This document shows, piece after piece, positions 1,623-62,035 of a DNA stretch of 64,000 nucleotides. The notes beneath the pieces were generated by a model. That model saw only the letters and a list, made by a program, of their open reading frames with translations, was not told the origin of the DNA and made no database searches. A program made the translations under genes and the position numbers. The first letter of the stretch is position 1; the number at the start of each line of letters is the position of its first letter. The stretch is from SAR202 cluster bacterium (GTDB lineage Bacteria; Chloroflexota; Dehalococcoidia; Lucifugimonadales; UBA3495): positions 22,114 through 86,113 of the forward strand of contig VGZV01000001.1 of the NCBI GenBank assembly GCA_016872385.1, written 5' to 3'.

Positions 1623-1788
1623 GCTCATGGTTCGACAAGCTCACCACGAGCGGGAATTGTCCACACGCTCTGAGAGCTTGTGTTAAAGGTGCCCGCTCAT
1701 GGTTCGACAAGCTCACCACGAGCGGGAAAAACCGCTCACACCTTCGGCTGGCTCAGGGCAGGCTCTGAGCTTGTCGAAGGGTGAGCAT
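1623..1788. repeat. Two tandem copies of C-type repeat (core GCTCATGGTTCGACAAGCTCACCACGAGCGGGAA; translates as SLSNHE / FDKL-type)
   Basis: The core occurs at 1623-1671 and 1691-1740, followed by a GAGCTTGTCGAAGGGTGAGC arm. The same core recurs at 7580, 12920, 21690, 25200, 38150 and 61990. Confidence 0.85.
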
Positions 1789-1964
1789 AGAAGTATATAC
1801 AACCTTTTAATACGGGCTCTTACAAAAGAAGCCCTTTGAAACTTCCTTAACATTGCGGTGATATTTTACCTTATGACGCTGGATTCCAAGCCTACGAATG
1901 GCCAACACGGAGTGCTGGCTATCACGCGCACGTTGGTGCGTTCAGGAGGTTTCCTTCTCTGTAG

Positions 1965-2306
1965 GTGGTAACTGGTATGAAAGAGATCTGGCTTGCTGCG
2001 CTGCGGGACCGGCATGCCAACATTGCAGAGTTCCGCCGCAATTCCGACCAGTTGGCGCGGTGGCTGGCGGCTGAAACCCTCGCTACGCTGCCAGTGGCAC
2101 GCAGGCAGATTGAAACTCCCCTGGGTCAAGCCACCGGCCCCACACCGCCCGAGGATGTCATGGTAGTGGTGATCTTGCGGGCAGCCTTGGCCCTTCTGGG
2201 GCCGTTCATGGAGGCTCTGCCGGGCGTGTCCGTGGGGTTTATAGGCATTGAGCGGGATGAAGGGAATGCACGCCCGCACCTCAGTGCCATTCCTAGGGCC
2301 GGTTAA
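1965..2306 (+). pseudogene. upp: Uracil phosphoribosyltransferase fragment (roughly residues 15-115 of a ~208-aa Upp)
   Basis: LRDRHANIAEFRRNSDQLARWLAAE...IETPLG...VVVILRAALALLGPFMEALPGVSVGFIGIERDE matches the Upp N-terminal half. It stops at 113 aa where it collides with the convergent globin gene, and no C-terminal half follows. Confidence 0.6.
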
Positions 2307-2702
2307 TCAGAAAAGTGGCCGTATGCTCGAAGTAGGCAATTAGCATTGCTGAATCCTCATCCGGGAGATGCATAGACCCAACAGCGGTAGTCATATGTTG
2401 TACCCAGGTGTCGCGCTCGGTCTGGCCAATGGCGAATTTCATGTGCCGCATCCTCAGCCGGGGATGACCCCGTTCGGCGGAGTAATGCGGCGGGCCACCC
2501 CAGTATTGGGATAAGAAGGCAGCCAGATGTTTTTTGCCTGGCTCCAGGTCGGGCGGGTATAGTGGCCGCAGCACGGGATCATTTTCCACCAGGTCATAGA
2601 AACGATTGACCAATGTGATGAAAATGTCTCCCCTCCTGCTCTGTCATAAAGGCTGGCATCTGCCACTGGACTTACTGGAATAGACTTGTCCTCTGGTTGC
2701 AT
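2293..2702 (-). CDS. glbO: Group II truncated haemoglobin (GlbO-like), interrupted by a 1-nt frameshift
   Basis: The C-terminal frame reads VNRFYDLVENDPVLRPLYP...FLSQYWGGPPHYSAERGHPRLRMRHMKFAI (trHbO signature). The N-terminal MQPEDKSIPVSPVADASLYDRAGG is in another frame, starting at ATG 2702. The frames join at the C4 run 2630-2633. Confidence 0.85.
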
Positions 2703-2875
2703 TGAAAAATTGGCCTCCGGAATATCCAGGCCACAAATTCTAAACTCCTTAAAAGTATATCCCCTGATCTCCAATGCGGCACACTGGGTAGTGGGTCAGT
2801 TTGCCGTGGCAAAAAGTCAGGGTTCCAATGGTCACAGCGGCGGAAGCCGGTGTCTAGAGACAGTATGGCTGGGGC

Positions 2876-2921
2876 GTACTGCTGGATTCCGGCTTGCGCC
2901 AGAATGACGAAAAGCTAATTG
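2876..2921. repeat. A-type repeat, right half only
   Basis: CTGGATTCCGGCTTGCGCCAGAATGACGAAAAGCTAATT matches the right arm of the full A elements at 12738 and 43169. Confidence 0.7.
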
Positions 2922-3061
2922 GCCCGTTACCGCACACTGGGTAGGTTGGACAGCGGCGGTTGGTCTCGGTATAATTTGCCATCCCCTTCAATATTCAGTC
3001 ACGAAACCGCCGGGCATTCCATAATCGCCATGCACGTAACTCGTACTTAAGGGGGCAAGAT

Positions 3062-3613
3062 ATGCCAGCCAAAGTTCTCGGCCTCGGTCATGTAGGGTTT
3101 TACGTAAAAGACCTGGAACTGATGAAGGACTTCTACGCGAATTTCATGGGCATGACTCTGACCAAGGTGGGTCCGCTGGGAGCCTTTTTCAGCGCCGATC
3201 CAGAGGCGTGCGACCACGAGATTGCCCTGATTAACGGGCGGCCCTCTCTTGACGACCCCCACTGGATTCAGCAGATCTCCATGCGGGTCGCGTCACTGAA
3301 TGATCTTCGCGACTTCAAGCGGCGCATTATTCAAAAGGGATACCAGCTGGACCGCATTGTATCCCATGCCAGCGCCATCGGCTGTTACTTCAGAGACCCG
3401 GAAGGCAACCCGACTGAAGTGTTCTGGCTAACCGGTATTACGTCTTGGGCCCAAATTGGGGTGCCTATTGACATAGACCAGCCGGATGAAAAGGTCATGG
3501 CGGACGTGCGCAGGTCTTATGAGGTTGTCAGGAACGTGGCAATGGGTCAAGTGCCCAGTCCGGAAACGCTAAAGGCCATTCGAGAGGCAACGGCAGTTGC
3601 CGCAGGCCGTTAA
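3062..3613 (+). CDS. VOC family protein (glyoxalase / extradiol dioxygenase fold)
   Basis: LGLGHVGFYVKDLELMKDFYANFMGMTL...DHEIALI is a VOC motif pattern. An SD-like GGGGG precedes the ATG. Confidence 0.8.
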   Translation: MPAKVLGLGHVGFYVKDLELMKDFYANFMGMTLTKVGPLGAFFSADPEACDHEIALINGRPSLDDPHWIQQISMRVASLNDLRDFKRRIIQKGYQLDRIVSHASAIGCYFRDPEGNPTEVFWLTGITSWAQIGVPIDIDQPDEKVMADVRRSYEVVRNVAMGQVPSPETLKAIREATAVAAGR

Positions 3614-3639
3614 GATTAGGCGATGTAGGTGAAATAGTT

Positions 3640-5019: not shown

Positions 5020-5036
5020 AATGCAGCTGGGATGAG

Positions 5037-5168
5037 GGTAAGTAGTGCATCAATTATCTGTTCGGCATTCCGGCGGAAGCTGGAATCCAGGAGAAAATCT
5101 GACCCATGTAGATATCTAGACACCGGCTTTCTCCGGTGTGACGGGTTAAGGCTTGGGGTAAGCTGACA
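5037..5168. mobile_element. A-type MITE-like element (inverted orientation)
   Basis: CATTCCGGCGGAAGCTGGAATCCAG ... CTAGACACCGGCTTTCTCCGGTGTGAC, with flanks resembling the family TIR GTAGTG-ATCA. Confidence 0.7.
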
Positions 5169-5246
5169 CTCTACCTGTGGGCAAGGAATCTTAACGCAGA
5201 GTCTTGTAGACCGGCGCCGCTGATGCGGGGCCAAGGCCATAAAACA

Positions 5247-5966: not shown

Positions 5967-6210
5967 AAACTAACCGTTAAGTCAGAGCCTCAGTTGTGCG
6001 GCCAAGCGTCTTGTTGGGCCGCTGCCCAAGTATACCGTAATGGCGGAAGTTGGCACGGCAGCTTTGCTATCCCCTGGGGTTTAAGGGGTAGCAGGTGGCT
6101 CGTAATAATTGCCATTGCTCCTCTAAATACCCGGCGGTTTAATTCCTGCGGCGGGGATCTGGCATTGACCTTCCCCACCCGAATCTGCCAAAATACGCCA
6201 AATCCACCAA

Positions 6211-7248: not shown

Positions 7249-7368
7249 GCTGACCATGCCTCTGGAACGTCAGCAATAACGAGACACTTTGAGAGAGGAT
7301 GATACACTGGAGGTGTCGGATGAAGTCTGGCACTTTTGAGAAGTGATCTGCTTCTTCACCTAAGATTG

Positions 7369-7640
7369 CCTAACAAAATGAAGGATGTCATTCTGAGGAG
7401 TCCCGATGACATCGGGACGACGAAGAATCTGGGGTGGTGGGCGTTTGCCCCACCCCAGACCCTTCGTCCTTCAGCCGAAGGACTCAGGGTGACAGCTTCG
7501 GCATTTTGTTAGAGCGTGTGTGAGAAATGCCGTCTACCCAGCCCGCTCATCCTGAGCTTGTCGAAGGATGAGTAGCTTTTAGCCCGCTCATGGTTCGACA
7601 AGCTCACCACCAGCTGGAATTGTCACACACCCTCTTAGGG
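7369..7640. mobile_element. B-type MITE (TIR CCTAACAAAATG / CATTTTGTTAGG) carrying a nested C-type MITE
   Basis: Near-identical to the uninterrupted 145-bp copy at 34338-34482. This copy is split after CATTTTGTTA by the element at 7512-7634. Confidence 0.85.
7512..7634. mobile_element. C-type MITE (TIR GAGCGTGTGTGAG / CTCACACACCCTC) inserted into the B element, TSD TTA
   Basis: 13-bp terminal inverted repeats. TTA occurs at 7509-7511 and 7635-7637, versus a single TTA in the empty site at 34478-34480. Confidence 0.85.
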
Positions 7641-10394: not shown

Positions 10395-10537
10395 GACGGC
10401 CCTCCGGTGAGGTAAAAGCATCCAGGATGCAATGGCCCGCCGCGGGCGGCCTGGCCCCCATCCTGCATAGTCTGGAACATGGTCCAGGACAGTTTACGGG
10501 CATCCTAGCTGTATCGCCGACGGGAGTCAATCCTCCG

Positions 10538-10655
10538 TAGTGTATCAATTTGGGCTTCATCGTTCCGCGTAAGCCGGAACCCAGTGCTGCATCTCAGCCC
10601 ACCCCTATCTGGGCACCGGCGGAAGCCGGTGCGACGGATAATTCCAAAGTAAACT
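10538..10655. mobile_element. A-type MITE-like element (inverted)
   Basis: GTAGTGTATCAATTTGGGCTTCATCGTTCCGCGTAAGCCGGAAC...GGCACCGGCGGAAGCCGGTGCGAC. Confidence 0.7.
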
Positions 10656-10898
10656 GATACACCACACCGCCCAATCCTCTGTACTCGTCGGTGTCCTCTG
10701 GTTATCCCAGGCCGGGGCATGGGCACTTTTGCTATTCCAGGGTCGAACAAGGGACTAACCAGTCGGGCATCTGCAGACCGGTGGGTGGCGCCGAAAGCCA
10801 GAGCCGCTGGTCATGCTCGCTGGCGGCTCTATTGGTCCTCAGCGTCCAGAGTTCCAAGTGTGTATAATAATGGCATCGCAAATCAGGCGGGAGGACGC

Positions 10899-12706: not shown

Positions 12707-12737
12707 CGCAAGTCAGGGCGCTGGCAACAGAATTCAA

Positions 12738-13029
12738 TAGTGCGTCCGTTTGCTTAAAGGCTCAACTCGCCACACCGGCGAAAGCCGGTGTCCAGATATA
12801 GGATACATACAGTTCTCCACTGGATTCCGGTTTCCGGCGGAATGACTAAGAGCGTGTGTGAGAAATGCCGTCTACCCAGCCCGCTCATCCTGAGCTTGTC
12901 GAAGGATGAGTAGCTTTTAGTCCGCTCATGGTTCGACAAGCCCCGACCTGGTCGGGATCCCGATACGTCGGGACTCACCACCAGCGGGAATTCTCACACA
13001 CCCTCTAAGGGCTAATTGATATACTACCC
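12738..13029. mobile_element. A-type MITE carrying a nested C-type MITE
   Basis: Matches the uninterrupted 132-bp A copy at 43169-43300. It is interrupted after GGAATGAC-TAA by the element at 12850-13005. Confidence 0.8.
12850..13005. mobile_element. C-type MITE (longer subfamily with internal 33-bp hairpin insert), TSD TAA
   Basis: TIRs are GAGCGTGTGTGAG and CTCACACACCCTC. TAA occurs at 12847-12849 and 13006-13008. A 33-bp insert, CCCGACCTGGTCGGGATCCCGATACGTCGGGAC, is present relative to the 7512 copy. Confidence 0.85.
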
Positions 13030-17131: not shown

Positions 17132-17277
17132 GGTACTGGTTCAGTTTGTCTCGCAAATGAGGAAGAAGTTGCTCGTCGCACCCCGACAAGTCGGGGTGCC
17201 CAGATACAGAATAGATACAGTTCTCTACTGGATTCCGGCTTCCGCCGGAATGACGGGTTTCAAACTGAACCAGTACT
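17132..17277. mobile_element. A-type MITE variant with 16-bp perfect TIR
   Basis: The TIR is GTACTGGTTCAGTTTG (17132-) / CAAACTGAACCAGTAC (-17277). The internal sequence is CCAGATACAGAATAGATACAGTTCTCTACTGGATTCCGGCTTCCGCCGGAATGAC. Confidence 0.8.
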
Positions 17278-19416: not shown

Positions 19417-19455
19417 GCAGGGGCGGGTCTGAAATCCGCCCCTGCTGTGTTTATT
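19417..19455 (+). terminator. Rho-independent terminator after the LLM gene
   Basis: 10-bp stem GCAGGGGCGG / CCGCCCCTGC, 9-nt loop, followed by TGTGTTTATT. Confidence 0.75.
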
Positions 19456-21665: not shown

Positions 21666-21766
21666 TGTTAGAGCCTGTGCTGAAAGTGCCCGATCATGCT
21701 TCGACAAGCTCACCATGAGCGAGAGAAAAGCGCTCATACTGGGCTTGTCGAAGGGTGGGCGCTGGT
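21666..21766. repeat. C-type repeat (degenerate)
   Basis: GCCCGATCATGCTTCGACAAGCTCACCATGAGCGAG...GGCTTGTCGAAGGGTGGGCG. Confidence 0.7.
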
Positions 21767-22003
21767 AGTGCACAGCGCTTTTTGAACACGCGCTAGTACT
21801 ACGGCAGTAAATTTGCCTGTCCTGTTGTGTCATGTCCCTGAACTCCCGTTTATCCACAAACGTTGGTATGATGCCGATTTACTTGGGTAAGTGCCATGTC
21901 AATAATACGTTTTGTATATCGTTTTTACGGTGTGGATGCAATTTTTCTTCATAACAGGAGTGCCAAAAGCATTGCACCAGCTTGACCGTGGAGGGTAGAC
22001 TAA

Positions 22004-25041: not shown

Positions 25042-25134
25042 ACTTTGGAGCCTGGGCGAGTTGTGAGTCTACCCATCGCCCGTTTTGACCCGCCGTCTAT
25101 AATACCCTGCAGAGAAATTGCCGGAGCTGTCCCA

Positions 25135-25290
25135 GAGGGCGTGTGACAATTCCCGCTCGTGGTGAGTCCCGACGTATTGGGATCCCGACCAGGTCGGGGC
25201 TTGTCGAACCATGAGCGGGCTAAAAGCTACTCATCCTTCGACAAGCTCAGGATGAGCGGGCTGGGTAGACGGCATTTCCCACACAAGCTC
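25135..25290. mobile_element. C-type MITE, long subfamily, inverted orientation
   Basis: Reverse complement of the 12850-13005 copy, including the same 33-bp internal insert. Its end abuts the bicupin SD (TTAGGAGGT). Confidence 0.85.
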
Positions 25291-26037: not shown

Positions 26038-26195
26038 TCAGTAACGTTTTGCACTCAATTAATGTCACCCTGAGCGGAGCGAAGCTCATTCTTTGCTCCC
26101 TTATATAAAATACAAGGGTCTAAATTTCCAGGATTTTAGATTCTTCGTCCCGATGCAATCGCGATTCAGGGTGATATTTTGGGCAAAGCCGCAGG
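26038..26195. repeat. Degenerate B-type element (inverted)
   Basis: TGTCACCCTGAGCGGAGCGAAG ... TAGATTCTTCGTCCCGATGCAATCGCGATTCAGGGTGATATTTTG resembles the 7369 and 34338 copies. Confidence 0.55.
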
Positions 26196-26214: not shown

Positions 26215-26290
26215 GTTGGGGCGCACCCGTGTGGGCGTTCCCGGCATGGCCCTCCACCCAAGGGCAGACCCATGGGTCTGCCCCTACCCC
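26215..26290. repeat. G-type GC-rich hairpin repeats
   Basis: GGGGCGCACCCGTGTGGGCGTTCC and GGGCAGACCCATGGGTCTGCCCCTAC. Related to 53685-53712. Confidence 0.6.
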
Positions 26291-29616: not shown

Positions 29617-29785
29617 CCCCAAGGTGGGCTGATCCTTCTGGGACTTCCCTTTCTGAATTCAGGCCGGGATCCGGCTAGTTGTTCACCTGCCCCCGCGCCT
29701 GGGCGCCGGCTTTTGCCGGTGCGGCGTAAGCCTTCCTAATGCTCGCCACGGCAAGCTGGGCCATTGCCCTTTAGTGCCCATCCTA

Positions 29786-29872
29786 AAAACTCACCGCTGA
29801 GTACGCGGAGACCGCTGAGATAAAAGGAATCCAATACAAACTCTCTGCTTTCTTTGCGCTCTCTGCGGTTAT
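29786..29872. repeat. E-type repeat (AAAAACTCACCGCTGAGTACGCGGAGACCGCTGAG...CTCTCTGCGGTTAT)
   Basis: Reverse complement of the copy at 58529-58617. Related copy at 54376-54459. Confidence 0.8.
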
Positions 29873-29944
29873 TGGATAGGCGCTTATAGCTTTGCAGGAT
29901 GCTCCTGAGCACATACCCACCTTGCTGCCTTGGTTTACAAATAA

Positions 29945-34337: not shown

Positions 34338-34482
34338 CCTAACAAAATGAAGGATGTCATTCTGAGGAGTCCCGATGCTATCGGGACTGCAAAGAAGCTG
34401 GGGTGGGGCAAGCGCCCACCACCCCAGACCCTTCGTCCTTCAGCCGAAGGACTCAGGGTGACAACTTCGGCATTTTGTTAGG
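34338..34482. mobile_element. B-type MITE, intact 145-bp copy
   Basis: TIR CCTAACAAAATG / CATTTTGTTAGG. Near-identical to 7369-7511 and serves as the empty-site reference for the nested insertion there. Confidence 0.85.
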
Positions 34483-37043: not shown

Positions 37044-38126
37044 ATGAAAATTACGGCTATCGAGTGCTTTATCCTGGACAAGCAGTTCCCCTTCGTCAAG
37101 GTGCATACCGATGAAGGGATAACCGGCATCGGAGAAATCTTCCGGCGCAATGCCGCCATCTACAAGACTGCGGCAGAGAGCGTGCTGGCGCCCTGCCTCA
37201 TCGGCAAAGACCCCCTCAATGCGGAGGGCCTTTGGCAAGAGATGTCCCGCGCGGGCGTGGCCATAGACACCCGCAGCGCGGTCTATTGCGCCATGGCGGG
37301 CATAGATATTGCCCTCTGGGATATCCGCGGCAAGGCCTGGGGTGTGCCGATTTACCAGTTGCTGGGCGGCAAAGTCCGGGACAAAATTCCAGTGTACGCC
37401 AGTTCGCTGGCGCGCACTCTGACGCCGGTGGAAGAAGCGAAACGCGCCGCCCATTTTGCCGAGCTGGGGTTCCGAGGGTACAAGCTGCACAACGCCGTGG
37501 CCGCCGCCCTGGACGACCCGCGAGAGACGGTAGTGGCCAGTGTGCGCGAGGTGCGCCGGGCAGTGGGCGACGGGTATCCAATCCTGGTGGACGTGAACGG
37601 GGCATTCTCCGCCCACCGGGCCATTGAAATTGGCAAGCAGTTGCAGGACCTGGGCACCTTTCACTTTGAGGAGCCGTGTCCCAACTACGACCTGGAAGGT
37701 CTTGCCCAGGTGGCGGGGGCGCTGTCTATGCCCATCGCCTCAGGCGAATGCATTTACACGCGCCGCGACTTTGCCGACCTGATTCTTAAAGGCCAGGTGG
37801 ACATTGTCCAGCCAGACATTGTAAAGGCGGGCGGCTTCACCGAGATGCAGAAAATTGCGGCGGTGGCTTCCACTTTCCGACGGCCCATCACCGTGCATAA
37901 TGTCCAGCCCACCATCTGCACCGTGGCCCACCTGCATTTTTGCGCCAACCAGGCCAACGTGGTGTATTCCCAGGAGTACGTCATAGAACAGGTGTCCATC
38001 CGGGACCAGCGGCCTATCCTCAAGACGCCAATGGAAGTCAAGGACGGCTACCTGGCGGTGCCCGAAGGCCCTGGTTTGGGCGTAGAATTGGATGAGGCGG
38101 CTTTCAGTTACTGGGCGTCGGTCTAA
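37044..38126 (+). CDS. Enolase-superfamily enzyme (mandelate racemase / muconate lactonizing family)
   Basis: 360 aa. MKITAIECFILD...VKVHTDEGITGIGE, DVNGAF and EEP metal-ligand pattern. Confidence 0.85.
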   Translation: MKITAIECFILDKQFPFVKVHTDEGITGIGEIFRRNAAIYKTAAESVLAPCLIGKDPLNAEGLWQEMSRAGVAIDTRSAVYCAMAGIDIALWDIRGKAWGVPIYQLLGGKVRDKIPVYASSLARTLTPVEEAKRAAHFAELGFRGYKLHNAVAAALDDPRETVVASVREVRRAVGDGYPILVDVNGAFSAHRAIEIGKQLQDLGTFHFEEPCPNYDLEGLAQVAGALSMPIASGECIYTRRDFADLILKGQVDIVQPDIVKAGGFTEMQKIAAVASTFRRPITVHNVQPTICTVAHLHFCANQANVVYSQEYVIEQVSIRDQRPILKTPMEVKDGYLAVPEGPGLGVELDEAAFSYWASV

Positions 38127-38144
38127 AAGCTTGTATCAGAAGGA

Positions 38145-38240
38145 GACCGCTCATGGTGAGCCCGTCGAACCATGAGCGGTGCGGATACGCTCCGCCCCTT
38201 CGGCTGGCTCATGGCAAGCTCAGAGCTTGTCGAAGAGCGG
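38145..38240. repeat. C-type repeat (degenerate composite)
   Basis: GACCGCTCATGGTGAGCCCGTCGAACCATGAGCGGT ... CAGAGCTTGTCGAAGAGCGG. Confidence 0.7.
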
Positions 38241-39851: not shown

Positions 39852-39923
39852 CATTGCGAGCGAAGCCATGCAATCTCTCCTCTTAAAGCAGGATTGCATT
39901 GGGGTTGCGCCCCTCGCAACGAC
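39852..39923. repeat. F-type hairpin repeat (CATTGCGAGCGAAGC...GCGCCCCTCGCAACGAC)
   Basis: Single copy in this window. Palindromic arms typical of small interspersed repeats. Confidence 0.5.
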
Positions 39924-40093
39924 TTTTTAAACATGCCCTCAGGCAGAGATATTCTAACGCACCTGGCGGGGAACGCCAGGCCAGGCTGGACTTTTCTGGC
40001 GCTTGTTGCGGCCTTGATTTTCCCGTAACTTGCCTTAAGATATCGGAGAAATCCGTCGCAAATTATGCGGCGAGAGGATGAGGAGGTCCTGGC

Positions 40094-43168: not shown

Positions 43169-43300
43169 GTAGTGTATCAGTTTGCTTAAGGCCTCAACTT
43201 GTCACACCGGCCTTCGCCGGTGTCCAGATACAGAATAGATACAATTCTCTACTGGATTCCGGCTTCCGCCGGAATGACGAAGGGCTAATTGATACACTAC
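43169..43300. mobile_element. A-type MITE, intact 132-bp copy
   Basis: TIR GTAGTGTATCA / TGATACACTAC. Internal CACACCGGCCTTCGCCGGTGTCCAGATA...CTGGATTCCGGCTTCCGCCGGAATGAC. Confidence 0.85.
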
Positions 43301-52829: not shown

Positions 52830-53741
52830 TTAGCCCCTTCTGGAAGGCGGAATGTCTACTCCCAGCAGGGCGCGCCGCGCCACCGCCCAGGCGCCGCGCA
52901 ATACTCCTTGCGCCGATGCCGTGTCCGGAGCCAGCGTCTTTACCGCCATGCCCTGCCCGCCGGGCAGAAGACTGGCCCCGGCCGCAGCGTTGGGGCATCC
53001 GCCAACTGCGGCGCGGACCTGATGCAGCAGAAGCTCCGCATCCCCCGCCTGCGACACGACAATGAGGGTCCCCACGGCGTATCCGTGGCCCTGGGTTTGA
53101 ATACCCAGCACGCCCCTGCCCAGGGGAGAGCGGGCTGCTGGCGAAAGGTCATAGCTTTCCCAGTACAGGATATGCCCTGCCGAGTCCTGCACCTCCAGCC
53201 GGTTTTGCAGCCGGGAATAGGCCAGGTTTTCCCCGCGGGCGGTCCGCCCCTGGGCCAGCGCCTCGCCGTAGATCAACGTGGCGCCTGGGGCTACTCTTAT
53301 GTGTGTCTGCTGGCTTAGGCGGGCGCTCTGGAAGGGTATGAGCGGCTCTGGCATGTACTCTAGACAACTGTCCTGGCCAAGGGTTAGACAGGTGTCCAGG
53401 CGTGCGCTTCCTTCCGGCATGGAATAGACTTTGGTGGCCGCCTGGGTAGTCAGGTGCGCCCTGGCCCCAGGGCCAACCTCTGCCTGCACTGTTAAGTGGT
53501 CGCCTGCCAGCAGCCCGGCCGTAGGGTTGCACAAGTAAATAAAAGCCATGTCCGGCAGGTTGTGGTCCAGGTACAGCGCCCGCTGTACCTGCAGAGGTGG
53601 GACGGTGCGCTTCCCCACCAGGCGGGTGCGGCCTTCCCGCACCGCCAGGGCCAGGTCCGCCAGTCCCTCCTGCGCCCTGGTTACGTAGGGGCAGACCTGG
53701 GTGTCTGCCCTGGGAGTCGGTTCAGCAGCGGGCCGCAACAA
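52830..53741 (-). CDS. ureD: Urease accessory protein UreD/UreH
   Basis: [23 protein letters not shown]...[14 protein letters not shown]...YMPEPLIPF. The start is uncertain. The nearest upstream canonical start in frame is TTG 53741 (the track ORF extends to 53828 and overlaps ureG). Confidence 0.8.
53685..53712. repeat. G-type GC-rich hairpin between ureG and conserved ureD sequence
   Basis: GTAGGGGCAGACC-TGGGT-GTCTGCCCTG. Related to 26262-26287. Confidence 0.6.
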
Positions 53742-54351: not shown

Positions 54352-54375
54352 GGCTTTTCTCCTTGGGGGGAAGGA

Positions 54376-54459
54376 TTAACCGCAGGGAGCGCGGGGAGAG
54401 CAGAGGATTTTTGGTTACTCTTAAAAACTCAGCGTTCTCTGCGGTCTCCGCGGTGAATT
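54376..54459. repeat. E-type repeat in the ureF-ureG spacer
   Basis: TAACCGCAGGGAGCGCGGGGAGAGCAGAGG...CTCAGCGTTCTCTGCGGTCTCCGCGGTGAATT. Confidence 0.75.
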
Positions 54460-54460
54460 G

Positions 54461-55309
54461 TTAGCTGGCAAATATCCGCAAGTCGCTGCTCTCATGGTTC
54501 ATGGCCGCAATGTCCAGCTCCGGAGTGAAGGAGGTCATCTCCCGCCAGTCTCGCTGGGCAATTTCCTGGGCCAGCTCCAGGGCCAGGGATTGCAGGCGGC
54601 GCAGAATTTCCTGGGCCTGGCGGTGGGTCATGGGCAGCAGGCGCAGCCCGGCGCTGAGCACGCCCACGCAATAGCTGTGGCAAAAAGCCAACAGCGCCCA
54701 CTGCTCCGGTATTTCCAGGCAATGAGACACTACCCCCAGGGCCACTGCGCCGGCGCCTGGCGATTCCCTGCGTTCCACCGCGGCCAGGAAGCTGCGGTGC
54801 ATGGGGTGGCTGGTAAAGGCGGCGGTCTCCTGGAGCAGCCTGCGGCCGTGCTGGCAAGAGGCGGCCCGCAGCTCCGAGGGCAATTTCAAGGCGTGCAGGC
54901 GCTGGTCAATGGCGACTACCGTTGCCAGGTCGTTATGGACGGCGGCGCGATAGGCATGGAGCAGGGCCACGCCGTCGGCGGGCAGCACCGACCAGGCAAG
55001 CTGGTGGGCCAGTAATTCCTCCACGTCGGCGGCGGCGCGCACCCAGTCCTGGCGCACCATGCCCTCCATCCCCTGGGAGTGGGCGTACATCCCCGTGGGG
55101 AAGAAGGAGTCGGATAGCTGGAGGGCGGTGAGGAAGGCCCGGCTGTGGTGGCGGAAATCCCCCCCACCCCCCTTTGCAAAGGGGGGCTTAGTTAACCCCC
55201 CTTCAGTAAGAAGGCGACTGGCTAACCATCCTTCATCAATGGAAGACCCCTCTAACCCCCCTTTTCTAAAGGGGGGTACGGGGGGATTTAGGGCCTCGCC
55301 GCTTCTCAT
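54461..55309 (-). CDS. ureF: Urease accessory protein UreF with a ~55-aa N-terminal extension encoded by two D-type repeats
   Basis: The conserved UreF body starts at FLTALQLSDSFFPTGMYAHSQGME. The only canonical in-frame start upstream of it is ATG 55309, 6 nt after the ureC stop, so the repeat copies at 55153-55293 are read as PPFRKGG...PPFAKGGGG. Confidence 0.8.
   Translation of the reverse strand: MRSGEALNPPVPPFRKGGLEGSSIDEGWLASRLLTEGGLTKPPFAKGGGGDFRHHSRAFLTALQLSDSFFPTGMYAHSQGMEGMVRQDWVRAAADVEELLAHQLAWSVLPADGVALLHAYRAAVHNDLATVVAIDQRLHALKLPSELRAASCQHGRRLLQETAAFTSHPMHRSFLAAVERRESPGAGAVALGVVSHCLEIPEQWALLAFCHSYCVGVLSAGLRLLPMTHRQAQEILRRLQSLALELAQEIAQRDWREMTSFTPELDIAAMNHESSDLRIFAS
55153..55293. 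repeat. Two D-type repeats (CCCCCC-TTT-nn-AAA-GGGGGG palindromes flanked by GGGGGGATTT) inside the ureF 5' region
   Basis: Copies at 55153-55200 and 55251-55293. Related copies at 57056-57093 and 57280-57320. Confidence 0.8.
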
Positions 55310-57033: not shown

Positions 57034-57055
57034 GCTAATTAGCTCCCTTGAGGCG

Positions 57056-57320
57056 AAAATTTCCCCAACGACCTCTTGTGAAAGGGGGGAACGCTGTAAG
57101 CTCCCTTTTGATAATGGGGTACTGGTACACTTTGCGGGCGCAGCAGAAAATGAGTTTATTCGTCACACCGGCGGAAGCCGGTGTCCAGAAATGCACGAGG
57201 CAGTTGCACGCTTCTGAATTCCGGTGCAAGCCGGAATGACGAGGCCCGAAAGGACCCAGTACCGCAAATGGGGAAGGACTTAAGCCCCCCTTTCGTAAAT
57301 GGGGGTTGGGGGGATTTCCC
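57056..57320. repeat. Composite of D-type, A-type (57119-57262) and D-type repeats filling the ureB-ureC spacer
   Basis: The 309-bp spacer between ureB (stop 57343) and ureC (start 57033) consists almost entirely of recognisable repeat copies. Confidence 0.8.
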
Positions 57321-57342
57321 GCGCCGCTAAGCAACCCGCCTT

Positions 57343-57735: not shown

Positions 57736-57785
57736 CTAACAGTGAGAGTCGTCCTTACGAGCGACATCCCGAATTTGCATCGAAA

Positions 57786-57873
57786 GCACCGGCTTAAGGT
57801 AGTTAGCGCATCGTTCTGGCGAAAGCCGGAACCCAGAGCGGCAACTGGATTCCAGCTTTCGCTGGAATGACGG
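57786..57873. repeat. A-type repeat in the ureA-ureB spacer
   Basis: GCACCGGCTTAAGG...CTGGCGAAAGCCGGAACCCAG...CTGGATTCCAGCTTTCGCTGGAATGACGG. Confidence 0.75.
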
Positions 57874-57953
57874 GGCCATACTAGGGTGGCTCCTCTGCCT
57901 AAAAATCTGGCTGAAAATTCGGAATGATTTATGGACAAAGGTGGTGGCAGTCC

Positions 57954-58256: not shown

Positions 58257-58385
58257 TGCAGCACCCGCCGCCGTGAATGTATTTGCGCCATGATTATATT
58301 ACGTATTCGGCCTTCTGCGGGGCTTGACCCAAGGCGGTCATTCATCCCCCTCGCCCAATTAGCGAGCCTTGCCCGAAAAATCATT

Positions 58386-58462
58386 GTCGCACCGGCGAAA
58401 GCCGGTGCCCAGACTCTCTGTGAAGTTGCGGCTACTGGGTTCCGGCTTCCGCCGGAACGACG
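58386..58462. repeat. A-type repeat upstream of ureA
   Basis: GTCGCACCGGCGAAAGCCGGTGCCCAG...CTGGGTTCCGGCTTCCGCCGGAACGACG. Confidence 0.75.
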
Positions 58463-58528
58463 TTCTATCCCTCGGCGATATTCGGATAACCCCCGCTGGG
58501 CGGGAGAATGGGATTTAGAGCCTATCCT

Positions 58529-58617
58529 AATAACCGCAGAGAGGGTAAAGAACGCAGAGAGTTTGTATTGGATTTCTTTTAACTCGGCGTTCTCCGCGTA
58601 CTTGGCGGTAAGTTTTT
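58529..58617. repeat. E-type repeat between glnA and ureA
   Basis: AATAACCGCAGAGAGGGTAAAGAACGCAGAGAGTTTGTATTGGATT...CTCGGCGTTCTCCGCGTACTTGGCGGTAAGTTTTT. Reverse complement of 29786-29872. Confidence 0.8.
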
Positions 58618-58650
58618 AGGATAGGCACTTAGGGGGTGGGGGTAATCCTC

Positions 58651-59985: not shown

Positions 59986-60035
59986 GTTTATTACTCCCTA
60001 TTGCCCAGTTAAATTAGGTTAAGCAGCAAAAGAGC

Positions 60036-60215
60036 TTCAATTAGGAGAACGTCATTCCGGCGGAAGCCGGAATCCAATAGAATGCATCAACCACTTTTGT
60101 ATCAGGACACCGCCGAAAGCCAGTGTGATGAGCCGAGTTCTTAAGCAAATTGATTCACTACACTTATTTCAAGAACCTTACTTTCTCTGGGCACCGGCCT
60201 TCGCCGGTGCGACGG
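60036..60215. repeat. A-type element (inverted, 60036-60161) plus a solo A-type hairpin (60187-60215)
   Basis: GTCATTCCGGCGGAAGCCGGAATCC...GGACACCGCCGAAAGCCAGTGTGA...CTTAAGCAAATTGATTCACTAC, then GGCACCGGCCTTCGCCGGTGCGAC. Confidence 0.75.
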
Positions 60216-60224
60216 TCAGATACC

Positions 60225-60935
60225 CTACACGGCCAGGTACTCCCGCACCATATTCTGGTCCAGGTACTTGGCAGTTCCTTCCAGGACTATGGACCCCTTC
60301 TCCATCACATAGCAGTAGTCGGCTACGCTCAAGGCAAAGTCCAGGAATTGCTCCACCAGCAAAATGGTAGTGCTGCCCGTGTTGCCCAGTTCCTGGAGCA
60401 GCGCCTCAATCTCCTGGACTATGGAGGGCTGGATGCCTTCAGTAGGTTCATCCAGCAGCAAGAGCTTGGGACGGCGCACCAGGGCGCGGGCCAGGGCCAG
60501 CTGCTGCTGCTGGCCGCCGCTGAGCGTGCCGCCGATTTTCCTGGGGTTTACTTTGAGGGCGGGGAACAGCTGGTACATCTCGTCCACCGCTTCCAGGCCG
60601 CGCTGTTTGCTGGGCACCGGCTCTAGGCCCATGAGCAGGTTTTCGTGAATGGTCAGGTATGGGAAGATGTCCCGGCCCTGGGGCACGTAGCTAATGCCGG
60701 CCCTGGCCCGCTTGTAGGTTGGCCAGCCCGTCACGTCCTGGTCCTGGAAGGTCACCTGTCCCTGGCGGGGGCGCAGCAAGCCCATGATGGACTTGAGCAG
60801 GGTGGTCTTGCCCACGCCATTGCGGCCCATAAGGCACACCACGCCGTGCTGGGGAATGGCCATATTCACTTGGGACAGCACTACGCTCTCCCCGTAAGCC
60901 ACTGATAAGGACTGGATTTCCAGCATCTGGTCCAT
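60225..60935 (-). CDS. urtE: Urea ABC transporter ATP-binding subunit UrtE
   Basis: Walker A GRNGVGKTT and LSGGQQQQL. Position and size (236 aa) follow UrtD. Confidence 0.88.
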   Translation of the reverse strand: MDQMLEIQSLSVAYGESVVLSQVNMAIPQHGVVCLMGRNGVGKTTLLKSIMGLLRPRQGQVTFQDQDVTGWPTYKRARAGISYVPQGRDIFPYLTIHENLLMGLEPVPSKQRGLEAVDEMYQLFPALKVNPRKIGGTLSGGQQQQLALARALVRRPKLLLLDEPTEGIQPSIVQEIEALLQELGNTGSTTILLVEQFLDFALSVADYCYVMEKGSIVLEGTAKYLDQNMVREYLAV

Positions 60936-60938
60936 GTT

Positions 60939-61844
60939 TTAAGCGGTGGCTGAGGCGGAACTTCTGTGGCTGCTGGCGAGACTGGTACTGCTGGTCCCGG
61001 CAGCAGGTTCGGGCTCGCCCTCGGCCTTTACCGGGCGCTGTTTGCCGTGGCCCAGGTATGCCTTGATGACCTGGGGGTCTTGCTGCACGTCCTCCATAGA
61101 ACCTTCGCTGAGCACCTTGCCCATGTGCATCACCGTCACCTTGCGGGCCAGTTGACGCACGAATTGCATGTCGTGCTCCACCACCAGCACCGACCGGTCC
61201 TGGACAATGCGCTGCAACAGTTCGCCGGTGCGGTCCCGCTCCCGCCGGGTCATGCCCGCCACCGGCTCGTCCAGCAGCAGCAGTTTGGGGTCTTGCACCA
61301 GCAGCATCCCAATCTCCAGCCACTGTTTCTGCCCGTGGGACAGCGTGCCAGCCCGCTGGTTAACCTGTTCGGTCAGGCTTACCTGTTCCAAAGTTGCGCC
61401 GATGCGGTCGGCATCTTGAGCACCCAAGGATTTGAGCTGCGCCCCCAAGGAACTGCGGAATCCCAGGGCTACCTCCAGGTTCTGGAACACCGACAGGCTG
61501 CCGAATACAGATGGGGTTTGGAACTTGCGCCCAATTCCCAGGCGCACCAGGTCATGCTCCTGCCTGCGGGCCAGGTCAATCCAGCCGTCAAAAATTACGC
61601 GGCCCCGGCTGGGCTTGGTCTTGCCTGTAATTACGTCTATCAAGGTGGTCTTGCCAGCCCCGTTGGGGCCGATGAGGAACCGCATCTCTCCCCGGTCCAG
61701 GCTGAAATCCAGGGCGTCCAGCACAGTGAAGCCGTCAAAGCTCACCGTCAGCTTCTCTGCCGATAGGATGGGCCCGCTGCCCGCTGGGGATGCGCGGACG
61801 GCTGAAGGGCTGCTACTGGGCTTTTTGGGGAATATACTGATCAT
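60939..61844 (-). CDS. urtD: Urea ABC transporter ATP-binding subunit UrtD
   Basis: GPNGAGKTTLIDVITGKTKP, LSHGQKQWLEIG. ATG 61844 is preceded by an AGGAG SD. Confidence 0.88.
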   Translation of the reverse strand: MISIFPKKPSSSPSAVRASPAGSGPILSAEKLTVSFDGFTVLDALDFSLDRGEMRFLIGPNGAGKTTLIDVITGKTKPSRGRVIFDGWIDLARRQEHDLVRLGIGRKFQTPSVFGSLSVFQNLEVALGFRSSLGAQLKSLGAQDADRIGATLEQVSLTEQVNQRAGTLSHGQKQWLEIGMLLVQDPKLLLLDEPVAGMTRRERDRTGELLQRIVQDRSVLVVEHDMQFVRQLARKVTVMHMGKVLSEGSMEDVQQDPQVIKAYLGHGKQRPVKAEGEPEPAAGTSSTSLASSHRSSASATA

Positions 61845-61958
61845 TCCGTCTCCTGTGGGATTGGCTCCGGCAGGCCGGCACCGATTTTTTAGGTAACACC
61901 CCAAATAGTATTGGCGGATCAAAAGCCTGTTCTAAAACGCCATTAATACTTCCACGCA

Positions 61959-62035
61959 CCCTTCGACAAGCTCAGGGTGAGCGGGTTTTTTCCGCTCGTG
62001 GTGAGCTTGTCGAACCAGGAGCGGGCACTTTTAAC
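61959..62035. repeat. C-type repeat overlapping the urtC 3' end
   Basis: CCCTTCGACAAGCTCAGGGTGAGCGGGTTTTTTCCGCTCGTGGTGAGCTTGTCGAACCAGGAGCGGGC. The urtC stop (61972-61974) lies inside it. Confidence 0.8.

Follow-up and report, generated by a model that had tools for sequence, protein, structure and literature searches.

Hairpin-rich repeats in the spacers of a SAR202 genome, and a miniature transposon enclosing a CGTC hairpin dimer

Introduction

The CGTC-1 family of REPs (Di Nocera 2013), the dRS3 or NTS element of Neisseria and the "Ssn-related motif" or SRM (Chenal 2025) are the same class of sequence, and in Neisseria this element is the target of the single-strand DNA nuclease Ssn. There, cleavage and binding by SsnA were found to be controlled by the three bases that precede the palindrome and by the C that directly follows it (PMC11893778).

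The DNA analysed here is from a lake genome, a MAG from Lake Tanganyika that bears the label "SAR202 cluster bacterium" (Chloroflexota). The window, by which we mean the whole stretch of 64,000 nucleotides, encodes proteins identical to NCBI entries MBM3941342-MBM3941380, and DNA identical to it is present in lake samples of ENA, JGI and Logan. The populations sampled are all clonal (100% identity), so that they revealed neither an empty site nor an insertion polymorphism. An earlier note had described seven families of palindromic, MITE-like repeats in the window (A to G). Profile, pattern and BLAST searches recovered all seven where it had placed them, and the repeats exceed chance expectation.

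Results and discussion

Repeat load and dispersal

Self-BLAST revealed 26 repeated intervals, and the window holds some 33 repeat copies totalling about 3.6 kb (5.6%), or one per 1.9 kb. Hairpins of the form GTC-palindrome-C number 24, compared with 6.8 +/- 2.5 in Markov-1 random sequences, and folding as single-stranded DNA gave z-scores of -7.9 and -9.3 for two copies of A (at 43169 and 17133, respectively), -9.1 for B (7369) and -5.8 for C (7513). By BLAST alone repeats occupy 18 of the 37 spacers of ≥50 nt and make up 24% of the non-coding bases; with profile matches added the counts rise to 21 of 37, and to 18 of the 24 spacers of ≥200 nt, so that the claim that most spacers are occupied is roughly right (57-75%). 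The density, which had been called unusual, is indeed high but not unprecedented, being comparable to that of the Neisseria NIME/dRS3 arrays and of other CGTC-REP-rich genomes (PMC1797815, PMC3733652). It also varies from place to place: only 3 copies lie in roughly 29 kb of flanking DNA, while contig L133 has about 20 in 14 kb. Outside the window, A, B, C, D, E and G are found on the upstream flank (L125) and on seven Lake Tanganyika contigs which do not overlap it (L132-L138). The presence of copies on at least seven other contigs shows that the families are dispersed, as had been proposed, and are not a local duplication. What the earlier note missed is the mosaic nature of the seven "families", which are built of nested modules.

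Family A is a MITE with a 9-bp target-site duplication

Family A is a genuine MITE. The element measures about 135 bp (range 130-145 bp), has terminal inverted repeats (TIRs) of 14-16 bp and a 9-bp target-site duplication, and encloses two hairpins inverted relative to each other, CGTC-A(T/C)(T/A)CCGGC-GNRA-GCCGG..T-CCAG. An nhmmer profile built from three copies found ten full copies in the window, at the positions first cited, with E-values of 1e-17 to 1e-30, and two partial ones. At least 12 further copies lie on other contigs, where the flanking genes differ. In the 14 copies where both TIRs are present, the 9-mers on the two sides agree at 7.86 of 9 positions (mismatched pairs of flanks: 4.16), and 93% of copies agree at ≥7 of 9 positions against 3.3% of controls. 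Clear duplications are CTGAAGCTG (L132), TCCCGCACG (L134) and CCTCTCCAAA (L136); on L133 three A copies adjoin each other in one target. Among insertion sequences, a 9-bp duplication is the mark left by a DDE transposase, here one that would act in trans.

The reference copy (43169..43300, +; E=2e-30) has the TIRs GTAGTGTATCAGTTTG / CTAATTGATACACTAC, a flanking repeat TCCATTG and hairpins at 43201-43227 (+) and 43252-43278 (-). The copy at 2788..2930 (+; E=7e-26) has outer TIRs GTAGTGGGTCAG / GGCCCGTTAC, the flanking direct repeat GCACACTG and CGTC-type hairpins at 2831-2857 (+) and 2882-2908 (-). Inverted copies are located at 5042..5174 (-; E=2.7e-27; full), 22 nt past the MmgE_PrpD stop, at 10537..10665 (-; E=3e-21; full), and at 60025..60166 (-; E=9e-25), 39 nt upstream of the glnA start. 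A further copy (57119..57262, +) occupies the ureB-ureC intercistronic spacer; the ureA-ureB spacer contains a core, that is, the hairpin dimer without clear outer TIRs (57776..57899, +; E=8e-18), and a core with other outer arms lies upstream of ureA (58350..58497, +; E=2e-20). The copy at 12737..13027 (+), with its right TIR TTGATATACTAC at 13016-13027, is split by a nested family C element; alignment to the uninterrupted copy at 43169 places the insertion point at GAC-TAA|...|TAA-GGGC. The partial copies are 29657..29772 (strand unassigned; E=1e-8), which adjoins an E copy and carries a degenerate hairpin, GCCGCACCGGCAAAAGCCGGCGCCCAG, at 29699-29725 (-), and 60167..60253 (-), a solo CGTC hairpin (CGTCGCACCGGCGAAGGCCGGTGCCCAG, 60187-60213, -) with a partial A arm.

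The copy at 17133..17276 (+) represents a second TIR subtype (GTACTGGTTCAGTTTG / CAAACTGAACCAGTAC), and the stem of its hairpin 1 is fully compensated (CACCCCGAC/GTCGGGGTG). The changes that distinguish the two TIR subtypes are mirrored at both ends of the element, a pattern that could reflect selection for pairing of the ends and not recognition by a transposase; against this, one of the L133 copies mixes both subtypes.

The passenger hairpin and its relatives in B and F

In each A hairpin an 8-bp covarying stem with a 4-nt loop of GNRA type stands between a CGTC head, which is unpaired, and a CCAG tail; the consensus is CGTCATTCCGGCGRAAGCCGGAATCCAG. Over 44 hairpins, 95.4% of cells are paired, both sides change in six of the eight pairs, and the G-T-C of the head and the C-C-A-G tail are invariant or nearly so; the covariation score of 0.468, compared with 0.162 in shuffles, was reached by none of 500 shuffles. 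The consensus and the Neisseria NTS CGTCATTCCCGCGMAVGCGGGAATCYRG (PMC11893778) differ in a single compensated base pair and a single base of the loop, and the hairpin has all the features stated for CGTC-1 REPs (PMC3733652). The same 25-mer pattern was found, mostly as inverted dimers, in more than 120 GTDB genome stretches among the matches listed, from phyla including Proteobacteria, Chloroflexota/Dehalococcoidia, Bacteroidota, Desulfobacterota and Zixibacteria. Because the published SRM search expression encodes a CCCGCG-type stem, only two hairpins of the window match it. Judged from its sequence, the passenger of A belongs to the CGTC-1 / dRS3 / NTS / "Ssn-related motif" class, which is spread across bacterial phyla.

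Families B and F are dimers of hairpins related to the A type (GTC-palindrome-C). The B copies at 7369..7512 (+) and 34338..34481 (+) are 89% identical, the latter starting 4 nt past the stop of the P-II gene; in the former, outer TIRs CTAACAAAATGAAGG / CTTCGGCATTTTGTTAG surround two GTC-palindrome-CTGG hairpins, and a mini-hairpin is nested in each. The copy first cited at 26038 is a divergent variant, B2 (26063..26177, -; E=5e-19), with the same hairpin-dimer core and different outer arms. Family F has one copy in the window (39852..39935, +; fold z=-2.7), a single dimer of GTC-(A/G)TTGCGAG...GCAAT-C hairpins, and its motif GTCRTTGCGAG recurs in other genomes (L016, L076, L124). The hairpins of A, B and F are of an already named cross-phylum class, the CGTC-tagged REPs or dRS3/NTS/SRM, which the first reading had missed.

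Family C and the remaining families

Family C, of which all seven cited copies and one extra fragment were found, is a MITE unrelated to A, with the TIR GAGCNTGTG and a 3-bp TWA duplication. The latter (TTA or TAA) is perfect in four of the eight copies, matches at two of three positions in three more, and does not match in one. Because of the duplication type, the family may be IS5/Harbinger-like. The reference copy (7513..7635, +; TIRs GAGCGTGTGTGAGAAA / TTGTCACACACCCTC; TTA duplication) contains two inverted hairpins that share the conserved loop GAGCTTGTCGA. Assemblies diverge at the left end of this copy. The element nested in A (12851..13006, +; E=1e-31) has TAA on both sides and a 32-nt double mini-hairpin insert at 12942-12973, and the same insert is present at 25134..25289 (-; E=1e-31), which ends 16 nt before a cupin gene start. 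The others are a right half (1612..1671, +; E=1e-12) and the C2 copies 1678..1808 (+; E=3e-22; TIR GAGCTTGTGTTAAAGG...), 21670..21791 (+; E=1e-23), 38126..38235 (+; partial; E=4e-17), adjoining the MR_MLE stop codon, and 61924..62036 (-; E=4e-26), between two ABC-transporter genes and overlapping the 3' end of the permease ORF. The description "MITE-like" is upheld, and the duplications of A and C strengthen it.

Families D, E and G are further hairpin repeats and, like B and F, candidate mobile elements. Family D, with the structure AAATCCCCCC-N-CCCCCCTTTGCAAAGGGGGG-CTTAG, has three clear copies, at 55153..55190 (+; ureC-ureF spacer, inside an over-called UreF ORF), 55251..55290 (-) and 57280..57320 (-; 22 nt past the ureB stop), and a degenerate one at 57056..57095 (+) which does not match the strict pattern. 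All three cited E copies were found, at 29771..29881 (+; E=4e-33; TIRs AGTGCC(C/T)ATCCTAAAAAC / GTTATTGGATAGGC; fold z=-3.3), 54375..54465 (-; E=7e-21; ureF-ureG spacer) and 58520..58630 (-; E=2e-30; 20 nt past the glnA stop), as were both G hairpins (GGGCAGACC-N4-GGTCTGCCC), at 26255..26290 (fold z=-3.4) and 53685..53715 (ureG-ureD spacer), with strand unassigned.

Repeats, genes and transcription

As the earlier note observed, many copies lie close to stop or start codons, at distances from a few nt up to some tens (4, 22 and 20 nt past stops for B 34338, A 5042 and E 58520), and the C copies at 38126 and 61924 overlap gene 3' ends. Its spurious ORFs are likewise translations of repeats: CCGGCGAAAGCCGGTGTCCAG gives PAKAGVQ, TTCCGCCGGAATGAC FRRND, AGCTTGTCGAACCATGAG SLSNHE and CCCCCCTTTGCAAAGGGGGG PPFAKGG, and the public UreF and UreD gene calls are over-extended through D and G copies. 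Its suggestion that the repeats probably supply terminators was not supported. Terminator-like sites in the window show no enrichment over shuffles (13 vs 19.3, 24 vs 19.3 and 21 vs 19.0), no A, D or E copy was called, the matches that touch B2, F and C copies are no more than marginal ones of 5-6 bp, and no U-tracts lie 3' of the hairpins. Copies are present at all five intercistronic junctions of ureABCFGD and at one in an ABC-transporter operon, which is hard to reconcile with efficient termination. On mRNA the CGTC hairpins would instead form stable, non-terminating stem-loops which may affect processing or stability.

Mobilisation and the possible role of Ssn

About 175 kb of DNA from this organism yielded no transposase with matching TIRs, and neither did some 2 Mb of loci from other organisms that bear the hairpin; no ssn/GIY-YIG gene turned up there either. 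We therefore infer both the mobilising enzymes and a role of Ssn here. The A and C shells would have spread through transposases encoded elsewhere in the genome, and a DDE transposase gene with ends of the GTAGTGTATCAGTTTG or GAGCSTGTGTGAGAAA type would be expected. In other organisms, hairpins of the CGTCATTCCGGCGAAAGCCGGAATCCA type lie on both sides of GIY-YIG (Ssn-like) genes in three independent contexts, with heads outward as in the A core. In one ssn context (Nitrosomonas, L147/L149) the upstream hairpin has the opposite orientation. The CGTC hairpins would extrude in single-stranded DNA and, as in Neisseria, are likely to be bound and cleaved by a GIY-YIG single-strand endonuclease of the Ssn family; CGTCATTCCGGCGGAAGCCGGAATCCAG as single-stranded DNA would be the substrate for a cd10448/Ssn homologue.

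Overall, we consider it probable that several families of hairpin-rich, non-autonomous mobile repeats have settled in the spacers of this SAR202 genome, inserted beside and into one another, and that chief among them is A, a MITE carrying a CGTC hairpin dimer. The elements are of known kinds, here in a new host; what is new, and only modestly so, is that a DDE-type MITE serves as the vehicle for CGTC hairpin dimers.

Repeat families of the window

The window has a G+C content of approximately 60%, and its proteins are identical to NCBI entries MBM3941342-MBM3941380, which are annotated "SAR202 cluster bacterium"; DNA identical to the window is also present in ENA assembly ERZ27247963, in JGI Lake Tanganyika metagenomes and in Logan assemblies. 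The gene map, drawn from the public gene calls and their Pfam domains, is one of ordinary metabolism and transport, including the urease operon ureABCFGD (minus strand, 58256 to 52830), glnA and an ABC transporter. Neither transposase nor GIY-YIG genes are present on this map.

Self-comparison revealed 26 repeated intervals in the window and, together with profile searches, recovered the repeat families where the earlier note had placed them. Family A is represented by 10 full and two partial copies (profile search). Profile or pattern searches gave three copies of B, eight of C (in two subtypes), three of E, three or four of D and two of G; F occurs once only. When tallied, approximately 33 copies of all families occupy some 3.6 kb, corresponding to 5.6% of the window and to between about a quarter and 30% of its non-coding DNA. 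According to the self-comparison and a curated copy list, repeats are found in 18-21 of the 37 spacers of ≥ 50 nt, and in 18 of the 24 spacers of ≥ 200 nt.

The families are dispersed, and the local duplication that the earlier note had named as the contrary outcome was not seen. When metagenomes were scanned for a 24-nt string taken from an A subfamily, seven Lake Tanganyika contigs without overlap with the window were retrieved (L132-L138), on which copies of A, B, C, D, E and G are found; the upstream flank of the window (L125) contains C and E copies. Copy density is clustered, with three copies in approximately 29 kb of flanks versus about 20 in 14 kb of contig L133. Overlapping contigs from other samples are all 100% identical to the window, with no empty site or insertion variation among them. 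Short-read contigs of other samples terminate within the repeats, as is expected of multi-copy sequence.

The repeats also leave their mark on the annotation. The spurious ORFs that had been attributed to them are just that, since the peptides cited are literal translations of the repeats, and a literature search for these peptides gave no match. The public UreF and UreD calls extend through D and G copies; in the former the UreF Pfam domain begins at residue 90 of 282. One C copy (7503-7635) was compared with 11493-11593 of locus L150 and with L125. Between 19095 and 7503 ENA contig k141_1508467 agrees with the window, but below 7503 it runs on into other genes (Wzy_C/TPR, PAS), and a second ENA contig covers window positions 1-7629. 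Since the ENA contigs diverge at the C copy, the join in the window reflects either chimeric assembly or structural variation at this repeat.

Several other features of the window were recorded. A 255-nt tandem duplication of 81% identity (23817-24329) lies within a gene with CLIPPER_2 and SpaA_2 domains (22996-24975), where it represents a duplicated domain of the protein and has no connection with the intergenic families. Genes that seem fragmentary or frameshifted are found at 1965-2306 (the N-terminal half only of a UPRTase), 48572-49171 (a trehalose-phosphatase fragment), 48786-50958 (a TrkH without about the first 77 profile positions, following a 1-kb unannotated gap) and 13274-14631 (an FAD-linked oxidase with its BBE domain in another reading frame).

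Family A is a MITE

Family A elements are non-coding, 130-145 bp in length, and present in at least 22 copies on 9 contigs at unrelated loci. A full copy consists, in order, of an outer TIR, a spacer, a first hairpin, a centre of 25-35 nt, a second hairpin in inverted orientation, a spacer and the opposite TIR. The outer TIR is of two subtypes, GTAGTGTATCAGTTTG and GTACTGGTTCAGTTTG; the element ends pair as GTAGTGTATCAGTTTG...CAAACTGATACACTAC, and 10-14 of the 14 bases are complementary (14 copies). In its single-stranded DNA fold the element has three hairpins closed by an outer stem (z = -7.9 in one copy and -9.3 in another).

The 14 copies with both TIRs are flanked by a TSD of 9 bp, occasionally 10 bp. 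The best 9-mer agreement between flanks is 7.86 of 9 positions versus 4.16 for mismatched flank pairs, and at least 7 of 9 positions agree in 93% of the copies versus 3.3% of the controls; clean duplications are CTGAAGCTG, TCCCGCACG and CCTCTCCAAA. Staggered cutting by DDE transposases leaves just such a footprint, a duplication of fixed length (9 bp), and family A is therefore a genuine MITE, the transposase that moves it presumably being of the DDE type. A TA duplication of the IS630/Tc1 type had been considered for families A and C; further copies gave 9 bp for A and TWA for C. The TA duplication was first read at the flanks of family B too, which is known from three copies. Mirrored differences between the TIRs of A copies, which resemble RNA-style covariation, are better read as two TIR subtypes because one copy on L133 carries one end of each.

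Three A copies lie side by side in the same GGGATTG target at 3421-3857 of L133, two lie back to back at 2523-2796 of L138 with one target in common, and an internal tandem array of A cores is found at 105-355 of L133. These arrangements suggest target preference and tandem amplification. In approximately 175 kb of DNA from the same organism and in the other loci examined, the TIR pattern was found nowhere but at MITE ends, and no autonomous partner was found there; nor did the DNA examined contain an empty A shell without its hairpin dimer.

In its length, TIRs, TSDs, intergenic sites near genes, strong folding and nesting, family A is like the bacterial MITEs of 100-160 bp (Correia/NEMIS, RUP, ERIC, Nezha), a likeness of features. 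It is unusual among them in carrying a REP dimer of cross-phylum distribution as internal cargo.

The CGTC hairpin

The hairpins enclosed by family A have the consensus CGTCATTCCGGCGRAAGCCGGAATCCAG, with CACCGGC/GCCGGTG and other compensated variants. All clear window hairpins have CGTC or TGTC ahead of the stem. Among 44 hairpins G1 and C3 of the head are invariant and T2 is conserved in ≥ 90%; in the C-C-A-G tail the first C and final G are invariant and the second C and the A are conserved in ≥ 90%. The stem consists of eight pairs, with 95.4% of the cells paired. Six of the eight pairs change on both sides. The covariation score is 0.468, compared with 0.162 for shuffles, and none of 500 shuffles came up to the observed value. 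The first pair is A-U in 33 of the 44 and G-C in seven, the second U-A in 22 and C-G in 21, and the loops are GAAA, GGAA, GCAA or their complements. The GTC ahead of the stem and the CCAG behind it are thus invariant or nearly so while the stem covaries.

CGTC-tagged REPs were defined by Di Nocera, De Gregorio and Rocco (BMC Genomics 2013, PMC3733652). Their CGTC-1 family, which comprises Neisseria dRS3 and Rickettsia RPE-6 and is without a dedicated transposase, is built of a CGTC (sometimes TGTC) head, a stem of 8 bp, a loop of 4 nt and a CCA tail, with inverted dimers as its usual arrangement (PMC3733652). CGTC REPs were reported from five phyla, Chloroflexi not among them (PMC3733652). The hairpins of family A share this head, an 8-bp stem starting A-T, the 4-nt loop and the CCA tail, occur mostly as inverted dimers (10 of 12 window occurrences) with spacers of 20-100 bp, and have no adjoining transposase gene. 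Judged by sequence they display each CGTC-1 feature, the rule of "AT at second position" being true for only about half of them, as the 22 U-A and 21 C-G pairs indicate. The inner stem of the window hairpins differs in being CCGGC/GCCGG. In Halothiobacillus neapolitanus all CGTC-1 dimers lie within a 41-bp palindrome, which was interpreted as their target (PMC3733652), much as the window dimers lie within the arms of family A. Where the 2013 survey took the arms as a target, however, the 9-bp duplications argue that in the window arms and dimer move as one transposable unit.

A genome scan with the pattern GGATTCCGGCNNNNGCCGGAATGAC, for which approximately 0.3 matches are expected by chance, matched at least 120 genome stretches in Proteobacteria, Chloroflexota/Dehalococcoidia, Bacteroidota, Desulfobacterota, Acidimicrobiia, Zixibacteria and others. 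Nearly all of the matches listed are inverted dimers. The partner hairpins, which the search pattern left free, are paired in 34 of 36 instances and show a wide variety of stems, and a single element in another genome (L085) has one hairpin of each stem type. The bare dimers of other phyla (n = 63) have no flanking direct repeats, and outer palindromic arms are found in only 12% of the cross-phylum dimers versus 0.5% of controls, from which it follows that the MITE shell is specific to the SAR202 lineage.

Among predicted viral contigs of IMG/VR (L153 onwards) the exact 25-nt hairpin pattern occurs in 106 stretches, some of them multi-copy (e.g. IMGVR_UViG_3300050015_000339); no Ssn homologue was found near the hairpins in these stretches. 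A CGTC hairpin dimer is also present on a 3.8-kb contig binned as archaeal (L087, a Bathyarchaeota MAG), which may represent binning contamination or a real occurrence outside the Bacteria. A Dehalococcoidia MAG (L065) contains same-strand tandem arrays of CGTC hairpins at 3080-3320 and 4880-5070 with a 62-nt period. These are NIME-like rather than CRISPR arrays, since their "spacers" are identical.

NIMEs are dRS3 repeats flanking RS elements in Neisseria (Bentley et al. 2007, PMC1797815). The window spacers resemble them as intergenic mosaics in which dRS3-type hairpins bracket short variable spacers and are mixed with other repeat families, and same-strand hairpin arrays occur in L065 and L133. 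They differ in that the window hairpins are mostly single inverted dimers in a defined MITE instead of long arrays, and in that neither a link to phage integrase nor DUS-type uptake sequences were seen.

Families B to G and nesting

The frame of GTC, palindrome and C is common to the sequences of A, B and F. In family B a pair of hairpins, GTC-A(T/C)(T/C)CTGAG...CGAAG..T-CTGG, is enclosed by outer TIRs (CTAACAAAATGAAGG), and both hairpins contain an inner mini-hairpin; in the variant B2 the B core has different arms. Family F consists of one dimer, GTC-RTTGCGAG...GCAAT-C. Families D, E and G, likewise made up of hairpin or TIR repeats, are present on other contigs too.

Family C is of another kind, its TIRs being GAGC(G/C)TGTG... 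and its element ends GAGCSTGTGTGAGAAA; its two inverted hairpins have covarying stems and share a conserved loop (GAGCTTGTCGA). Its TSD, TTA/TAA, is perfect in four of eight copies, agrees at two of the three positions in three, and is absent from one. A 3-bp TWA duplication is typical of IS5-group and PIF/Harbinger elements. With its TIRs and 3-bp TWA duplication family C is like IS5/Harbinger (Tourist-like) elements, and the type of duplication points to an IS5/Harbinger-type MITE. Other Chloroflexota and a few Proteobacteria also carry the C loop and the F motif. Two C hairpins (7552-7607 and 12892-12943) show weak Rfam similarity to Aggregatibacter sRNA 41 (AaHKsRNA41; 28.6 bits against a gathering threshold of 97, E = 0.013), which may itself contain a related repeat.

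The families are nested. One A copy is split by a C copy (12851-13006) bounded by a TAA duplication; with C taken out, the A sequence reads GAC-TAA-GGGC. This C copy holds a 32-nt double mini-hairpin which is also found in the C copy at 25134. Mini-hairpins of 15-18 nt (TCCCGAT-N-ATCGGGA, TCCTTCAGCCGAAGGA and CCCGACCTGGTCGGG) recur as inserts in B and C copies, at 7401-7417, 7467-7482, 12942-12973, 25184-25198, 34370-34386 and 34436-34451, and act like an additional level of modular or mobile units. On contig L134 (3144-3300) a C copy with the double mini-hairpin has approximately 12 nt of family A sequence on each side, the rest of A being absent; at this second locus the A::C composite, in whole or in part, has been copied or truncated.

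Hairpins and ssn genes

The Neisseria NTS, CGTCATTCCCGCGMAVGCGGGAATCYRG, encompasses dRS3 and serves, in single-stranded DNA, as the binding and cleavage site of the GIY-YIG nuclease SsnA, which has no action on RNA (Chenal et al., Nat Commun 2025, PMC11893778). The bases just 5' of the palindrome determine cleavage and the C just 3' of it determines binding; NTS-like hairpins, termed SRMs, flank ssn genes (cd10448 GIY-YIG) across phyla, and symbionts are enriched among the SRM-rich species (PMC11893778). The usual window copy differs from the NTS consensus at three positions of this 28-nt hairpin, which are one compensated pair and one loop base. The determinants of the SsnA type are kept: GTC ahead of the palindrome and C behind it are invariant or nearly so, and the conserved hairpin positions are those relevant to the recognition of single-stranded DNA by SsnA. 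As with NTS and SRMs, the distribution of the hairpins is clustered and non-random. Since the published SRM expression matches only two window hairpins (0.5 expected) and misses most copies, membership was judged by the CGTC-1 definition and by the hairpins that lie beside real ssn genes.

The Ssn family was searched with an Ssn-like GIY-YIG sequence of 94 amino acids, which represents a very large real family: all 8000 scored candidates were significant and all contained PF01541. Near-identical hairpins with CCGGC stems bracket ssn genes in other bacteria. On a Rhodocyclaceae contig a GIY-YIG gene is preceded by CGTCATCCCGGCAAACGCCGGGATCCA and followed on its far side by the inverted TGGATCCCGGCGTTTGCCGGAATGACG. 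Two further GIY-YIG proteins (95 amino acids) are encoded on many marine and other contigs (L259-L275), with CGTCATTCCGGCGAAAGCCGGAATCCA approximately 124 nt upstream of the gene and the inverted CGTCATTCCGGTGRAAACCGGAATCCA 2 nt past its stop codon, and the GIY-YIG gene of locus L139 is likewise flanked by hairpins of this type. In L259-L262 the hairpin-ssn-hairpin unit lies between the SBP_bac_5 and BPD_transp_1 genes of an ABC-transporter operon, except in L261, where a DDE_Tnp_ISAZ013 transposase lies upstream.

In three contexts the hairpins that bracket ssn have their heads outward and their tails toward the gene, an arrangement that the A core shares. The Nitrosomonas context differs, with the upstream hairpin in the opposite orientation and a separate dimer 240 nt downstream. 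Just downstream of ssn in Nitrosomonas sp. Is79A3 (L147, 704-810) is a MITE-like element whose TIR is GGAAACTCTGAATAACT and whose hairpins, GTCATTCCGAACAAAGTGAGGAATC, again vary the GTC-palindrome-C theme. Because outward heads are common to both, the A core is readable as an ssn cassette without ssn. We put this forward as a hypothesis, and the shared topology makes the derivation of dimers from ssn cassettes directly testable.

No GIY-YIG or ssn ORF was found by regular expression and tblastn in the window, its flanks or L132-L138, some 175 kb of a genome of several Mb, and the gene table of the L150 flank (approximately 10 kb) has no GIY-YIG domain. The same searches found no ssn near the hairpins in the 120 genome loci (approximately 2 Mb). 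The window hairpins differ from NTS and SRMs in this respect, in riding within a MITE with TIRs and a TSD, and in their host, a free-living lake bacterium which is neither a competent pathogen nor a symbiont.

Terminators and RNA matches

The earlier note had supposed that the elements probably supply terminators, which was not borne out. Terminator-like sites are at or below the shuffled expectation and none falls on an A, D or E copy, the hairpins are without following U-tracts, and copies occur inside operons: all five junctions of ureABCFGD carry at least one element, as does one junction of an ABC-transporter operon. An identity as intrinsic terminators was accordingly rejected. Strong terminator-like hairpins, with 11-12 bp stems and T-runs, are found outside all repeat families at 19417-19445 (+) and 19613-19637 (-), where they flank a tRNA gene (19511-19584).

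No repeat reaches an Rfam gathering threshold in the window, where the passing matches are one tRNA and one match in a coding region. The latter, to 5_ureB_sRNA (56583-56884, plus strand; 98.8 bits), is antisense inside the ureC coding region and is probably conserved urease coding sequence rather than an sRNA gene.

Alternative explanations

We read the repeats as selfish MITEs whose cargo hairpins are putative recognition sites of an Ssn-type nuclease, presumed to be active in this organism and encoded elsewhere. That their density should reflect a metagenome assembly artefact or a local segmental duplication is hardly credible. Short-read contigs of other samples do stop inside repeats, and the window join at the C copy 7513-7635 conflicts with the ENA assembly, but sequence across elements is identical in independent ENA, JGI, Logan and NCBI assemblies, copies are 10-40% different from one another with unique flanks, and the families recur on seven non-overlapping contigs. 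The elements might also be kept mainly as host RNA signals (terminators, mRNA stabilisers or processing sites), with mobility incidental. Stems are strongly selected and folds stable, copies lie just past stop codons as well as at every urease junction, and hairpins of REPs and MITEs are known to raise or lower mRNA stability (reviewed in PMC3733652). We nevertheless consider this explanation quite unlikely: U-tracts and an enrichment of terminator-like sites are lacking, there is no Rfam family match, the elements are palindromic and lie in both orientations relative to genes, and TSDs and nesting are signs of selfish spread. Furthermore, the invariant positions are the unpaired CGTC/CCAG flanks, which are relevant to the recognition of single-stranded DNA by an enzyme inactive on RNA (PMC11893778).

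Mobilisation by a RAYT, a tyrosine transposase of the IS200/IS605 type, as for the GTAG REPs of Pseudomonas and enterobacteria, would fit several features of the elements. They are inverted doublets of short palindromes, 20-35 nt apart as in a REPIN, are able to fold into a long hairpin and are amplified within the genome, and the outer TIR of family A happens to begin with GTAG (GTAGTG...). The REPIN/RAYT system and its GTAG REP super-family were reportedly described by Bertels and Rainey in 2011. Single-strand transposition of the IS200/IS605 type is not known to leave a target-site duplication, however, and family A has one of 9 bp. The gene tables of the window and flanks contain no RAYT, nor is there a Y1 transposase domain among their Pfam-annotated genes. 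With a CGTC rather than a GTAG head on the hairpins, and no RAYT linked to CGTC REPs by Di Nocera et al. (PMC3733652), a RAYT origin is very improbable. It is also possible, if on balance unlikely, that the hairpin dimers and not the shells are the primary mobile unit, gene-less derivatives of hairpin-ssn-hairpin that Ssn moved via single-stranded DNA without a TSD, one of which landed in a pre-existing MITE and was then amplified. The outward-headed hairpins around ssn in three contexts favour this, as do the 63 bare dimers without direct repeats, the rarity of outer arms, and the presence of the SAR202 core in at least four outer contexts (two TIR subtypes, 57776 and 58350) and in the tandem arrays of L133 (105-355). 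Against it, we know of no GIY-YIG enzyme that transposes DNA, no ssn lies near the hairpins in approximately 2 Mb of hairpin-bearing loci, the Nitrosomonas context has the other hairpin orientation, and no empty A shell was found. Chenal et al. noted that NTS-ssnA-NTS resembles an insertion sequence, but cutting is the activity that they demonstrated for SsnA (PMC11893778).

A more general proposal, which we advance as a doubtful one, would make the CGTC/NTS dimers the gene-less, non-autonomous form of the hairpin-ssn-hairpin cassette. CGTC REPs would owe their mobility to Ssn, the enzyme long sought for them, which would work on single-stranded DNA and leave no TSD, and the SAR202 dimer would have been captured by a DDE-type MITE and amplified by this second, unrelated transposition system. 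If this were true, Ssn would be the first GIY-YIG transposase-like enzyme, and the conservation of a 28-nt hairpin across bacterial phyla would be explained.

Significance

On the reading that we prefer, that of selfish MITEs with putative Ssn-type recognition sites as cargo, side effects on mRNA structure and recombination are plausible, and any regulatory effect of the repeats is one that we infer. The repeats account for the spurious ORFs, the over-extended UreF and UreD calls, the assembly breaks and one doubtful join in the MAG. They belong to known kinds, the CGTC-1 REPs (dRS3/NTS/SRM) and MITEs, and leave the known categories unchanged; the novelty lies in the host phylum, in the nested mosaic and in the evidence for a DDE-type MITE carrying CGTC dimers. 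The CGTC-REP/dRS3/NTS class is thereby extended to the SAR202 Chloroflexota. CGTC REPs, which had no dedicated transposase in the 2013 account, gain a concrete route of multiplication as the cargo of a MITE with a 9-bp TSD.
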